From Eledone cirrhosa (lineage: Eukaryota): 64,000 nucleotides of DNA. The notes below the pieces were generated by a model. That model ran no database searches. It saw only the letters and a list, made by a program, of their open reading frames with translations, and was not told the DNA's origin. A program made the translations under genes and the position numbers. The stretch's first letter is position 1. The number at the start of each line of letters is the position of its first letter. Shown here piece after piece: positions 32,219-47,179 of this stretch. The DNA lies in the NCBI GenBank assembly GCA_964016885.1, contig OZ024746.1, forward strand, positions 62,310,001 to 62,374,000. The letters run 5' to 3'.

Positions 32219-33449
32219 TCACGATACACTCTGGTGATTGATGGCAGTAGGCTCGGTCACTGAGACATTCTCCTGGTTAGCAGATAATCCCGATGTTAAG
32301 CTAGTCTCCTGGTTAGCAGATAATCCAGATGTTAAGGTAGTCTCCTGGTTAACGGAGAGACCAGATGCCGAGATATTATCCTGGTTAACGGAGAGTCCAG
32401 ATGCCGAGATATTCTCCTGGTTAATGGAAAGTTCAGATGCCGAGACACACCCCTGATTAGCAGAGGGTTCAGATGTTGATACATAAACCTGGCTGATGGC
32501 AGAGGGCTCAGATACTGAGACACTCTGCTGGTTAACAGACAATTCAGACACTGAATCGCACTGCTGGTTGGCAGAAGACTGAGACACAGAAATAGTTTGT
32601 TGGTTGGTGTTGGTGGTGGTAGAAGACTCAGACACCAAGACATTCCGTCGGTTTGTGGAAGAGGGCTGGGACACAGAAACATTATGTTGATTAGTAGAGG
32701 GCTCAAACACAGAGCTGCAAATCTCCGTCCATGTTCCTGAGCCATTCAATAATGTTGTATCTGGTGAAGCAATCATGGCAAATGTTGGTGCTTCAGTAGC
32801 TGGGGTTGGTGTGAGTGTAGTGTTTGTAGCAGCTGTCGTTGCAACTACTGCAACTGCAGCTGTTGTAGATGTTTTCGTTATCTGAGTTGTCTTGATCCCT
32901 GCCAGGTTCAAAAGTGCATCTGCACCCTCGGCAATTTTCTTCTTCTCATCTTCGTCAAGAATGGGCAACCGTTTCTTAGTGCGGTGTTGTCTATTGATGA
33001 ATTTGTCCCTGGCTTCATTAGCATTTTTATCGGACTGTGGAAAGAAAGAAAATTCCTTGGTGACAGTCTTTGTTGTTGCAGAGTCGATTGGGCTTGCCGT
33101 TGTCATGTTAACAACAGACGTAATAACTGATGAGTTTGCCGACACTGGTTCCTGTGATCCATCAGCCTGGTGTGGCTGATTCCCATTGTCCTCCTCACTG
33201 AAGCTCTCTTCTTCATCAAAATCACTATGATAGCTGTCAAAGTCACTGTAGGCTTCTTCATCGTCTTCACCTTCGTCTGGTTCAGGCCCAAAGTCATACT
33301 CATCGTCAATAGAAGAGCTCGATACATCATAACTGTCATCATCTGTTGCTTGAGTTGATGTGGCACTGTAGTTGTGGTCCTCACTCGGGCTGCTGGTACA
33401 CACAATTGGGCCAGCTTGCTTTTTGCGAACAGGACCATATGGAGCACCC
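32219..33449 (-). CDS. FOXN3: FoxN2/3 (FOXN3/CHES1-like) forkhead transcription factor, last coding exon
   Basis: Part of the 427-aa ORF. It contains PSEDHNYS (EDHNYS at 33382-33365), SSSSIDDEYDF and KIAEGADALLNLAGIK, which match, from memory, the FOXN3 C-terminal motifs EDHNYS, SSSSADDHYEF and EAAGSLLHLAGIR in the same order. Acceptor tctttttccag|G at 33450/33449 (phase 2); stop TGA at 32221-32219. Confidence 0.9.
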
Positions 33450-40806: not shown

Positions 40807-40986
40807 ATAATTGTTTCTAATTTTTTGGCACAAGACCAGCAATTAACCAGTACATTACTGGTACTTTATTTTATTGACCCCGTATGGATGAAAGGCAAAG
40901 TTAACCTCGGCGGGATTTGAACTCAGATCGTAAAGGGACGTAACTATGCTGGAAAGCATGTTCCACCCTCTATCGATACTGCCAAT
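40807..40986 (-). mobile_element. Major-family SINE about 22 nt downstream of an exon donor
   Basis: A-box-like TGGCAGTATCGA and B-box GAGTTCAAATCCCG on the minus strand. Confidence 0.85.
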
Positions 40987-41008: not shown

Positions 41009-41059
41009 CTGTATCACAGCCAGACTGAGCTAACCTTTTGCTTAAAAATGGGAAGAGAT
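41009..41059 (-). CDS. FOXN3: FoxN2/3 internal exon (51 nt): (H)LFPFLSKRLAQSGCDT(D)
   Basis: Strong acceptor (ttc)n-cag and donor CAG|gtgagt; phase 1-1. LFPFLSKRLA resembles the LFPYLSRRLA-type motif I recall from invertebrate FoxN2/3 (CHES-1-like) proteins. Confidence 0.85.
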
Positions 41060-41880: not shown

Positions 41881-42764
41881 ATAACTTCCATCAATTTTGA
41901 TCGCCCTTTTCATTTATATAAATTTCATTATGTACTCCTGTTAACCCTTTATAGTTGGGTGTTTCAATTAATTTTCAAAACAAAGGATTTAGTATAATTT
42001 ACAATTTCAACATACAGACAGTTGTTTGGAACATAACAAAAGGGTCTTGCATGAAACTACGATGAAAAGTTTTACTTCAAATATGAACATATTAAAACAG
42101 AGAATTTTGTATTATGAAATAAGAGGCAGTGTCAGGTGAGCACATGCAGTGATTCTTACTGAAACAAACCATGAGTCAATTTTATTCCTTCTATTTACCT
42201 GATTAGTATTGGAAGCCTGGAAAAGGGTCATGGGTGTCATCCTTCAGGACAGATAAGGACCAGATGCTGTTGTTAAACAACAGACCAAACTTCACTAGAG
42301 GACAGACAAGGGCCAGGTGCTGATGCTAAACCATGTTCTGTGCTAGACCCACCACATGATGTGCAAATATATTCTTAATTTACAGAATTTAAGAGTTCGA
42401 ACTTTAATTATGAATACTTTATCATTAGTAAGATCATGCTAAGAGCACAAAGTACCTACACATATACACATGTTTGTGATACAATAACATGTGCCCAGTC
42501 TATGCTATAAAGTGGTTGGGCAGCTTAAAAACCAGACCCCAAAAGAAGAAACAAAGAGAAACCAAAGGAAAATAATGAAACAAAACTTATGAGTTAACCT
42601 TCTAAATGTATTCATGAAAACAAATATATTTTGTCCTAAAAGGATCTCTAATAATTTTATAGGCTACAGTAGAAAACACTAACTCAAGGTGCTATACAGT
42701 AAGATCAAATATAGAGGCAAGGGCTGCTAAATGAACACCTTAACCACATAACATATGTATATGG

Positions 42765-42858
<94 letters not shown>

Positions 42859-43001
42859 GAGTATATGTTGGTTGTATACCAACACCTCAGTATGCAGGCT
42901 GGAGCACTCGACGAAGTACGCAGGTTGGTTTGGTTACTCCAGAGTAATGTAAAATAAAGTAAAATAAAAAGTCAAATGTTTAAAATTTAGCTTCGTTTAT
43001 T

Positions 43002-43056
43002 ACTGCTATATATATTTCGGTGACAGCCATCTTTGGCTGTGACCTCTTCAGGCAGT
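43002..43056 (-). ncRNA. Minimal type I hammerhead ribozyme, family A (sense to FoxN2/3 pre-mRNA)
   Basis: Exact reverse complement of 43287-43341. Confidence 0.75.
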
Positions 43057-43286
43057 TTGAATTAGTATGGTATAGACAAGTACATATGTTGTTAAGGTGT
43101 ATGATATTGTCAATACTCTGATATGCCCAGTTCCTGGTTGGGTTGTTATTTCACTGAGGAACTGGAATCATATGATTCCAGTTCCTCAGAGAAATAACAA
43201 CCCAACCAAGAACTGGGCATATCAGAGTATTGACAAAATTATACACCTAAACAACATATGTACTTGTCTATACCATACTAATTCAA

Positions 43287-43341
43287 ACTGCCTGAAGAGG
43301 TCACAGCCAAAGATGGCTGTCACCGAAATATATATAGCAGT
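43287..43341 (+). ncRNA. Minimal type I hammerhead ribozyme, family A
   Basis: ACTGC-CTGAAGA-GGTCACAGCCA-AAGA-TGGCTGTCACC-GAAA-TATATA-TA-GCAGT: 5-bp stem I, CUGANGA core, stem II closed by G10.1-C11.1, GAAA, palindromic minimal stem III and a UA cleavage site. Confidence 0.8.
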
Positions 43342-43509
43342 AATAAACGAAGCTAAATTTATAAACATTTGACTTTTTATTTTACAGAGAGAGAGGAAAA
43401 GAGTCAGGACCCCGACAGCTGAGCTCAGCCTGATTCTTTTCCTATTACCCACTCTACTACCCTAAGTACTCTGATGTATTATGGTCCACCTGGTATCTTA
43501 CCACACCCT

Positions 43510-43567
<58 letters not shown>

Positions 43568-43949: not shown

Positions 43950-44008
43950 GAGAAAGTGAAAGGCTGTTAGGGCTAAATTTAGGGGCCAGTGGAACGGGTT
44001 TCACATTG
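43950..44008 (-). CDS. FOXN3: FoxN2/3 internal exon (59 nt): (S)NVKPVPLAPKFSPNSLSLS(H)
   Basis: Acceptor tttctctcattgcag and donor C|gtaagt. Phase 2 in and phase 1 out, open, and joins the next exon to give ...SLSHLFPFLSKRLA. Confidence 0.8.
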
Positions 44009-44092
44009 CTGCAATGAGAGAAATGAATACAATGTTAGTTACAAAACATCAAAAGAAAATAGTCAATTTCAAAAATGTAATAATAATAATAA

Positions 44093-44505
44093 TAATTGTT
44101 TCTACTTTTGGCACAAGGCCAGCAATTACCCAGTACATTACTGGTAAATAATTGTTTCTAATTTAGGCGCAAGGCCAACATTTTTTTTGAGAGGGGGGAA
44201 AGTTGATTAAATCGACCCCAGTGCGTTACTGGTGCTATACTTTAGTGACCCCCGTAAGGATGAAAGGCAAAGCTAAACTTGGCAGGATTTGAACTCGGGG
44301 CGTAAAGAGCCCTAACTTTATGCCGTGAAGCATAGTGTCCGACGCTCTACGGGTTCTACTAATCCACTGCCCTATATTATATTGACCCCAGTACATAACT
44401 GGTATTTATTTTTATCAACCCTGGAAGGATGAAAGGCAAAGTTGACCTCGACAGGATTTGAACAACTAAGCATTTGTCCGACATTCTAACAACTTTGCCA
44501 ATCCA
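44093..44505 (-). mobile_element. Cluster of three major-family SINE copies or fragments
   Basis: Tail motif at about 44110 and 44165; B-box regions at about 44285 and 44455. Confidence 0.8.
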
Positions 44506-45304
44506 ATAGTAACGTGTTTTTATATTATTAAGCAGAAAGAGTTCATAAAAATCACATTAAGGACAGTACAATATGATACAGACTGGTTTTGTGTAAACAT
44601 GTAAAAAGGGGGTGGGGAAATGTGCAACAATAAAATGGAACACACAAAATTCTCCAATAAGGGGGAAATTTCCAAAGGCTACTCCTCAAAAAAATTCACA
44701 AAAGGCTACAGTCACCCTGTCCATTAAGGCAAGTGCTTTCTTCCAATATATGCGTGAGTGAGTGTGTGTGAGTGTTTGTGGTCAGCAAATCAATGTTTCC
44801 ACAGCCATTGTATGTATCGATTGACTTTGAAGATAAAACAAGCCAAAGAAAGTAAAGAGCATGACTGAGATATTTCTGCTAACAAAAGAAACTTTCTTGT
44901 TATGATTGTAAGCCATAAACTAAATAGATTTAAGTAAAGAAATTTCATGTTAGGTGCAAATATCACAAAAAAAATACTATTGAGCTATACAATCCTACCA
45001 ACTTGCATACCTCAGCTTTAGTCATAGCTGTACTCTTCAACATGAAATAGATTGCTGTTCTATTTCACACAAAAACTTCCTAGTGTGAATTATTATTATT
45101 ATTATTATTATTATTGCATTCTATTTTGTTTTTCTAATCTGATATGACCTCTGCCTAAGAGTTCAATTCATTGGTGTTGGTATTTATTTTCCTTTATGAG
45201 ACTTAGGTAAAAACAAAAAAAAAACATTAAATATCAGCATGGGCAGCTACTATGGAACTGAGGTAAGTGAATTCGTTGGATTGATTGTACATCCTAGATA
45301 TAAT

Positions 45305-45497
45305 TGTTTCTACTTTTGGCACAAGGCCAGCAATTACCCAGTGCATTACTGGTACTTTATTTTATCGACCCCGTAAGGATGAAAGGCAAAGTTAACTTCG
45401 GCGGGATTTGAATACAGAATGGCAAGGGCCGTAACTCTATGCGTCAAAGCATGGCGGCCGACCTTCTACCGACACTGCCAATCCACCGCCTTATATA
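45305..45497 (-). mobile_element. Young full-length major-family SINE with 14-bp TSD
   Basis: ATCCTAGATATAAT at 45291-45304 and 45498-45511. Confidence 0.9.
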
Positions 45498-47179
45498 ATC
45501 CTAGATATAATGAAGATGAACTGGTGAAGCATGAGTTTACTTTTAAAGGGAATTTGGCTGCTATTTCTTGCATTCTCATAGATACTCCCATATTAAGAGA
45601 AGATTCATGGTGATGGTGGAGGAGATAAGTGAAGACAAGTGAAGAGCCAAGTAAAGAAAAAAAAAAGAAAAAAAGGCTTGGGGGTATATGAAAGTAATCA
45701 AAAGCAAGAGAGGAAATATACAGTGAAAAACTACTTTTTGGTATTGGGTGTATTTTTCAACCAAGAAGAGAACTGTGAAAGTCAAAATGACATTTGATGT
45801 GGATAAAAGAAACAGCACAAGAACCCACAAAAATGTATAGATTGCCTCAGTCTAGTTACATGTGTGTGTCTGGAGGAGAGGGGGTAACTTTATATAAAAA
45901 AATATCGTTGCAAGTATGTGACAAAAATAGGAAAAAGTTCTTTGATAAAAAGGGGAGAAGCTCTTGAAATGAGCGATTAAAAAAATAAAACGATAGTGTG
46001 TGTGTGTGTGTACATGTGCATGTGTTTATGTTCCTCTTAAGAGATAAAGAAAGTGTTTATGTGTGAAAGTAAGTGTGTGTGGTGTGTGGTGCGTGTGTGT
46101 CTGCATGCTCAGATTCTACAAACAATCTGTCTGTGTAAGCAGTTGTAATATTTTTCAGTATGTGCAGACATACCCTTTTTATTAAAAGAAAAAAAAGAAA
46201 AACATTGTATCTGACTGCAAGTGTATAGTCCTTTGAGAGGATGTGCATGTTGTTGAGTGCTTGCATGTGAATAATGCATGTGTGTGTGTGTGTTCTTTAA
46301 ATACATTATATGCATTTATCCATTATTACACACATTCTGTGTGTGCATGTGTAATTGTGCATCCACTGTATGCACATACAATTATTACATTGCATGCATA
46401 CATACATATCCTTAGTGTATACTTTGTGTGTGCTTAAGTGTGTGAGTATGTGTCTTATGTGAGCCGGGGATAGCAAACTAAACCATAATGCCTGTATGTG
46501 TGTGTGGATGGAGCACAACATGCAATGAGCAATTTAAAAAAAAAAGTTAACCAAAAAATTATATTAAACAAAACAGACAATATATAGATAAAAACACAGC
46601 AAAAATGCGTAGAATACAGAAGAAATAAAATGCAATGTAAAATAAAATAAATAAAATAAGGAACACAATAAATAATAATAATATACAATAGAATGAAATA
46701 AAATATAATGTAGAGGAAAATATAATATATACAGTGTAGAAGTGAATAAAATAAATGGAATGTAGAAGAGAATAAATAAATAAAATAGAATGTGGTAATA
46801 GAATAAAATAGGATATAGAATAATATGAAGAGGATATGATAAAATAAATAGGATATGAGGAGACGAAATCAAATAAACAATGTCAGTGATATAATTTAAG
46901 AAACAAACAATTCTTTGTTTTCAAATGTTGAAATTCTTTCTTGCACAATGTGAATAACAACTTGTGTGCATTTGTGTATGATAGGTAGGATATTATCTGA
47001 CAAAACAGCAATGATAATATCCAGCATAGAAGAACAATACAAGATAGTATAAAGAAGATAATTGAAAACCATAATTTCAGTAAACGAAAAGTCATTGAAT
47101 TAAGGTCAACAACTTGATTATTTATTTATCAATTTATTTCTTTGTTATATTTTATATCACTATTGATGAACAATAACGT

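Follow-up and report, generated by a model that had tools for sequence, protein, structure and literature searches.

The palindrome in the FoxN3-like gene of the window, the 64,000-nt stretch of Eledone cirrhosa DNA that was analysed, is almost certainly the insertion product of a Penelope-like element (PLE), and it is probably a head-to-head pair of 5'-truncated pLTRs that was made in one insertion by reverse-transcribing a single RNA twice. The two arms, 42959-43171 and 43172-43385, adjoin with 0 nt between them and match in 208 of 214 aligned columns, the remainder being five substitutions and one indel, which confirms the spacerless palindrome with about 97% arm identity of the original prediction. 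Both arms derive from a Penelope-like retrotransposon, of which each represents the 3' end (pLTR), so that the tie to Penelope pLTRs, made earlier on account of the ribozymes, was also correct.

Structure of the insertion and identity of the element

The left limit that had been set at 42959 could not be kept, as the element goes on leftward for another 105 nt or so and reaches about 42852. The left arm is the pLTR from position 1 to 222, counted outward from the centre (42950-43171, minus strand; 96-97% identity to dispersed copies), and it alone bears a 98-nt tail (42852-42949, minus strand), which ORF-bearing copies have as their 5' UTR, some 55 nt ahead of the ATG. The right arm (43172-43385, plus strand) is a pLTR without tail and stops 9 nt before the usual no-tail end. 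Because the tail had been overlooked, the insertion is longer than the palindrome first described; it totals about 530 bp and is asymmetric, with pLTR and tail on the left and pLTR without tail on the right. Common to both arms at the junction is the 8-nt self-complementary TCATATGA (43168-43175), the hot spot for 5' ends in this family. An assembly fold-back was rejected on the six arm differences, the unmirrored flanks, the tail on one arm only, and the presence of the same centre at 398 loci with unrelated flanks. With repeats masked, 4 of the 16 listed sequencing runs yielded no read or contig across the locus, a result that carries no information on its presence or expression. At the tail end the sequence reads as a (TA)n then (GA)n microsatellite (42762-42851). 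Element ends sit in microsatellites, which would hide any target-site duplication, and the general terminus of family copies is (TA)n, alone or preceded by (CT)n. It was also observed that (CT)n and then (TA)n often follow tail ends as an extension of the element's own last bases (42762-42851; L006, L044, L045, L072, L084, and L088), and these repeats could come from RT slippage or repeat addition rather than from a pre-existing target.

With one arm as the query, 787 candidates were found in the genome, and the 40 that were scored had mostly 96-97% identity. The 36-nt hammerhead core occurs 5,615 times as an exact match. The exact 26-nt palindromic centre is present at 175 loci, and if either of the two common alleles is accepted the number rises to 398, the count for the second centre allele (210) being obtained by subtraction; for one allele, 633 copies of the native non-palindromic junction were counted. 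Palindromes are found in several subfamilies. The first 100 listed cores include 17 close head-to-head pairs, 2 tail-to-tail pairs, and 0 close direct pairs. The opposite kind of palindrome, a tail-to-tail join across a short (TA)n, was seen in L013, L021, and L023 and at C1:51769845-51770032.

Longer copies have, upstream of the arm, a 3' UTR of more than 1 kb, a GIY-YIG domain, and an RT ORF. The left arm runs uninterrupted into the 3' UTR of such RT and GIY-YIG copies (L032, L132-L139), and in copies continuous with the arm (L032, L132-L136) RT and GIY-YIG lie in a single ORF; every ORF-bearing copy that was examined is broken. The GIY-YIG domain was matched in Pfam (E 1.3e-4). The RT domain was unmatched in the Pfam search of the element ORF and was read from the YRDD motif and the layout. 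The order pLTR, tail, ORF, which is a partial tandem, was found in L132 and 10 loci, with about 100 nt between the pLTR and the ORF start region. Protein fragments contain RWK (RMRWKA), DKT in place of DKG (HADKTN, L132), the linker CxCX5C as CNCRNPESC, and CxxC/CxH around E and N as CKLCLNE..N..CRH; the CCHH cysteine pair is missing, there being one C between LVY and YIG. These resemble the C-terminal-endonuclease PLEs of the Hydra clade as described by Craig et al. 2021 (PMC8557442), which have RT followed by GIY-YIG, RWK, DKT, the CxCX5C linker, CxxC/CxH, a pLTR hammerhead, and (TA)n targets. The element differs from that account in its unit of about 4.3 kb in L132, compared to generally less than 3 kb in the Hydra clade (a typical and not a strict figure), in its 3' UTR of more than 1 kb, in its tail of about 100 nt compared to 30-40 nt, and in its thousands of mini copies. 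By its protein motifs and layout we would provisionally place the element in the Hydra clade. The Naiad clade was also weighed by its motifs and was set aside on account of the C-terminal position of the endonuclease. It is possible that the Hydra families in the supplements of PMC8557442, or Repbase, already include this family.

Two other observations were made on family copies. In L013 (reverse-complemented) the 3' UTR has, just upstream of the pLTR, a 154-nt duplication (1081-1234 and 1302-1455, 76% alike) with a CCAAT box in each copy, which makes it a candidate promoter for the downstream pLTR. In addition, copies of this family have ORF fragments of other PLE-like families as direct neighbours (L013 3-524, minus strand; L005 flank), one type with GLKF..DKG and another with CNC..CPLG, and it appears from their position that TA microsatellites may be landing sites common to several PLE-like families.

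Pairing of the arms and its likely cause

The tail on one arm only is the rule in this family. Tail was paired with no-tail in 56 of 58 head-to-head pairs, one of the others being tail with tail and one unclear. Some of these 58 come from loci that were chosen because they had an arm of full length, a palindromic centre, or native junctions in a pair; just 30 are unselected, all from contig C1. In the unselected sample, made up of the first 100 cores on this contig (80 loci), a head-to-head pair was present within the fetched stretch in 30 of the 80 loci, and 29 of these 30 were tail with no-tail. Unpaired arms were tailed in 31 cases, untailed in 40, and unclear in one; if each arm of a pair took its end independently, a 31:40 split would give mixed pairs in only about half. 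The unrelated high-copy repeat that adjoins the right arm at 43393-43512, and is followed by (TA)n, is also a palindrome; its centre is GCTGAGCTCAGC, one arm is short and the other is longer by about 90 nt, and no hammerhead was noticed in it. It matches 29 of the 180 fetched loci, three of its four head-to-head pairs are tail with no-tail, and it is possibly another PLE family obeying the same tail rule.

The arms of a pair also share their alleles. At common polymorphisms paired arms differ at 0.23% of sites versus 3.5% between loci, 24 rare alleles are common to both arms of pairs, and arms cluster by locus, whichever side of the centre they come from. The centre has two alleles of roughly equal frequency, and only 13 of 398 centres mix them. 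Since there is one tailed arm per pair and the template alleles are shared within the pair, the mirror is rebuilt at each insertion. One template per insertion fits the allele data and a master palindrome does not, as far as the sequences can tell; arm-to-arm conversion could also explain the sharing. A non-autonomous palindromic element, like a retrozyme or a MITE, whose copies all descend whole from a master palindrome would account for the identical centre at hundreds of loci, but it is very improbable given that arms cluster by locus and not by side, that palindromes occur in several subfamilies, that junctions vary widely elsewhere, and that the first 100 cores listed include no close direct tandem.

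Would two RNAs from one source copy, for example joined by dimerisation of hammerhead stem III and copied one per cut end, do as well? We regard this as unlikely. In its favour, the ribozyme dimer is preferred by about 7 kcal/mol in cofolding, and at the studied locus three of the five arm differences hit common polymorphic sites, which is more than typical and could mean two templates or conversion. Against it, two RNAs alone leave the tail and no-tail division in 56 of 58 pairs unexplained, and mixed-allele centres are just 13 of 398. In 9 of these 13 both arms were aligned over at least 200 sites, and the arms otherwise share most diagnostic alleles. The mixed centres were therefore rejected as proof of two templates; they resemble point mutations, 4 of the 13 not being comparable over the full arm.

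Arm lengths bear on the order in which the arms were made. Among 48 close pairs 25 are asymmetric, and the longer arm is the tailed one in 10 and the untailed one in 15; in multi-kb pairs, by BLAST coordinates, the longer arm is tailed in 5 and untailed in 6. Several close pairs carry internal deletions, and junction positions vary widely in other pairs. That either arm may be longer supports twin priming; a mirror arm with a tail cannot be copied from a first cDNA that lacks one. The main rival explanation, which we consider doubtful but well ahead of the others, is that the same element makes a first cDNA or antisense template that folds back at its palindromic end, is copied, and is then trimmed at 222 by a nuclease or by (TA)n microhomology. 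Long perfect palindromes lose their centres asymmetrically, and a fold-back that later suffers such a deletion could look like independent truncation. It also accounts for the perfect centre and the shared alleles, including the 24 rare ones. Yet the untailed arm is longer in 15 of the 25 close pairs and in 6 of the 11 long ones, which with fold-back requires a later deletion, the cDNA end has no predicted hairpin with which to prime itself, and 40 unpaired arms likewise end at the no-tail site. Self-priming has been proposed for the head-to-head palindromes of Adineta Penelope elements (Arkhipova et al. 2013, PMC3846280), and in the available text of this paper and of PMC8557442 self-priming or nuclease resolution is favoured for inverted pLTRs.

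We then have to account for the hot spot at the centre. Among the 100 unselected arms, 36 start at -4 to +4 of the centre, 31 extend upstream of it by another 16 nt or more, and 33 have scattered starts downstream; their 3' ends concentrate around 222 and around 320-330. Of 30 arms sampled by an anchor on the downstream side of the ribozyme, 11 start at the centre. A closer palindrome, ATATATAT at 157-164, attracts at most 1 of these 30, and thus the hot spot is not due to microhomology alone. Ribozyme cleavage as the cause of the 5' ends was rejected, as position 166 is the start of none of the 30 arms, and the single arm with a start at 170 has it after a TA run. For a cDNA that ends at the centre, folding predicts intermolecular self-annealing at -8.0 kcal/mol and no hairpin. 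A CCAAT box lies about 55 nt upstream of the centre, and there is a TCATAT that resembles the initiator consensus. The hot spot is likely due to an RNA 5' end at the centre. What counts against an RNA start there is that 0 of 10 ORF-bearing units start at the hot spot, 8 stopping short of it and 2 running past.

In coupled twin priming, as we propose it, the GIY-YIG nuclease would cut both strands within a TA/GA microsatellite and RT would prime on both DNA ends, at about 222 and about 322 of one RNA, with the trailing copy displacing the leading one. Both cDNAs would then reach the RNA 5' end, probably the transcription start at the centre, where their self-complementary 3' ends would anneal, or RT would jump across, and fill-in would give the spacerless palindrome. 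Such a scheme has a precedent in vitro in the PAc Poseidon PLE, for which the accessible text of Frangieh et al. 2024 (PMC11167929) describes cutting and extension of both strands, two internal RT starts that bound the tail, AT-rich targets, no ends at the ribozyme cut, a predicted dimer, and a hammerhead whose cleavage is dispensable. PAc Poseidon belongs to a different clade, and that text does not deal with inverted products or with a coupling of the two starts. We suggest more tentatively, as a possibility for which the chances are nearly balanced, that both ends of the double-strand break receive a copy of the same RNA, made by one PLE dimer that begins at two fixed internal sites, that the two cDNAs are then joined head to head, and that priming at the 5' pLTR of the element's own RNA, which begins with self-complementary bases, mass-produces hundreds of spacerless dsRNA hairpins.

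The hammerhead motif and the host gene

Each arm has a hammerhead motif, as the original prediction stated, but the arm does not end in it, for the motif stops about 45 nt inside the arm end. From its sequence and folds, the plus-strand motif (43287-43341) has its predicted cut after 43336 and is followed by AATAAA (43342-43347). The mirror motif (43002-43056, minus strand), which is sense in the host pre-mRNA, is predicted by folding to be cut between 43007 and 43006. The two arms do not differ anywhere in the hammerhead region. Read on the plus strand, stem I is ACUGC/GCAGU, the core is CUGAAGA with GAAA at 43325-43328, stem II has 10 bp with one C-C mismatch, and stem III is the self-complementary AUAUAUAU; by the consensus we take this to be a type I hammerhead. 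An Infernal search had been suggested as a check. Rfam did not match the hammerhead model either at the gathering score or among 34 hits at E<=10; what it gave were generic hairpin (miRNA) models, none of which reached its cut-off. Because Rfam detects none, the putative type I assignment leans on the consensus and on folding. Elsewhere in the family, arm position 153 is T in 110 of 187 arms versus C in the studied copy, whereby the basal G-C of stem II becomes G-U, and positions 114-115 differ between subfamilies with a possible stem I extension being altered.

When a single arm was folded the probability of helix II was 0.76-1.0 and that of helix I only 0.26-0.30. The dimer-type folding anticipated for such a motif was borne out by a predicted cofold energy of -44.4 compared to 2 x -18.6 kcal/mol, a gain of about 7 kcal/mol. 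Amphibian hammerheads with a weak palindromic helix III are reported to depend on dimers (PMC7229834). In the read-through transcript the ribozyme is predicted to be locked, as had been proposed: by approximate folding, the hammerhead helices can be imposed only at a penalty of 79.5 kcal/mol, and they form with a probability of about 0. That the antisense arm precedes the ribozyme, as had been claimed for either strand, is true of read-through RNA only; an RNA starting at the centre would bear a free ribozyme. The speculation that editing unlocks cleavage found no backing, for with 10-50% of the non-core A modelled as G the penalty was still 74-78 kcal/mol in a model that changes A to G outside the core only and in which G understates the weakening of the duplex by inosine. 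The adenosines of the core would themselves be edited as well.

The predicted intron placement proved right. The host gene, on the minus strand, is FoxN3-like by a protein match (E 2e-129; 88% identity to Octopus vulgaris 'forkhead box protein N3-like'), and the palindrome lies within its 2.9-kb intron 43949-41060. The upstream exon (43950-44008, minus strand; 19 of 20 residues match P0001, with AG/GT borders) is about 565 nt away, in agreement with the earlier figure of about 560 nt, and the downstream exon is at 41009-41059 (minus strand). A motif scan of the window gave no forkhead domain; the nearest is about 120 kb upstream on the same strand, and we infer that it belongs to the same FoxN3-like gene. 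The last FoxN3-like exon (32219-32710, minus strand) extends about 165 codons past the end of the O. vulgaris protein by way of a repeated SASELSVNQE-like unit. A SINE-like repeat, presumably a common octopus SINE, has several copies around the host exons (40809-40945, 44092-44505, and 45300-45499).

It could be asked if the host has adopted the insertion as a regulatory cassette, in which editing or proteins unlock the ribozyme and thereby control the FoxN3-like pre-mRNA. The intronic site about 565 nt from the donor site would suit this, the PAc hammerhead is protein-assisted (PMC11167929), and squid ADARs edit repeats, those edited outside neurons being in introns and UTRs (PMC9068888). By analogy with the squid, the 213-bp intronic duplex is a plausible ADAR substrate, as had been suggested. 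Against adoption, the copy is young as judged from its arms (97% alike, and 96-97% like dispersed copies), it has no special feature compared to its 397 sibling palindromes, and the lock of about 80 kcal/mol persists under modelled editing. We consider such a host role highly unlikely. Nor is the insertion a special "self-silencing cassette", the description first given to it, since it is a routine product of a family with thousands of copies. For the host, the most likely explanation is a tolerated intronic passenger that forms a long dsRNA hairpin with an inactive ribozyme.

Relation to known elements and significance

Head-to-head pLTRs, tails, and hammerheads have been published before, and what the present counts add is mechanistic constraint. 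The insertions described by Arkhipova et al. 2013 and Craig et al. 2021 similarly have an inverted, 5'-truncated head-to-head copy, a palindrome at the junction, and a tail at one end. They differ from those studied here, in which the arms enclose no element body and the same junction is found at 398 loci, and for which we have counts of the tail rule and of shared alleles. The non-LTR retrozymes (PMC7229834; bioRxiv 10.64898/2026.07.22.740005), as far as described there, are likewise short non-coding units with a type I hammerhead that are related to PLE pLTRs. However, they are head-to-tail tandems that are cut into monomers and circles, unlike the head-to-head units here with 5' ends away from the cut. 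According to PMC8557442, the origin of tandem and inverted PLE structures is "still undefined", and in the open-access literature we found no paper that counts tail pairing or proposes coupled twin priming for PLEs.

In L1 twin priming both target strands prime cDNA on one RNA and an inversion results, the two segments being different parts of the RNA; here, in contrast, both cDNAs would copy the same stretch of RNA. If coupled twin priming is true, then the PLE tail and the inverted pLTR are outcomes of one event, and it can be tested through the published in vitro PLE assay.

The studied locus is an ordinary transposon stump and the family is of more weight. Its hundreds of young insertions constrain PLE transposition, since each pair has a single tail and a single template, the longer arm can be either of the two, and 5' ends do not coincide with the ribozyme cut. 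The family also scatters several hundred perfect hairpins of 200 bp, which are a potential source of dsRNA for editing or small-RNA pathways, and if the proposed mechanism holds, these spacerless hairpins could feed the element's own silencing.
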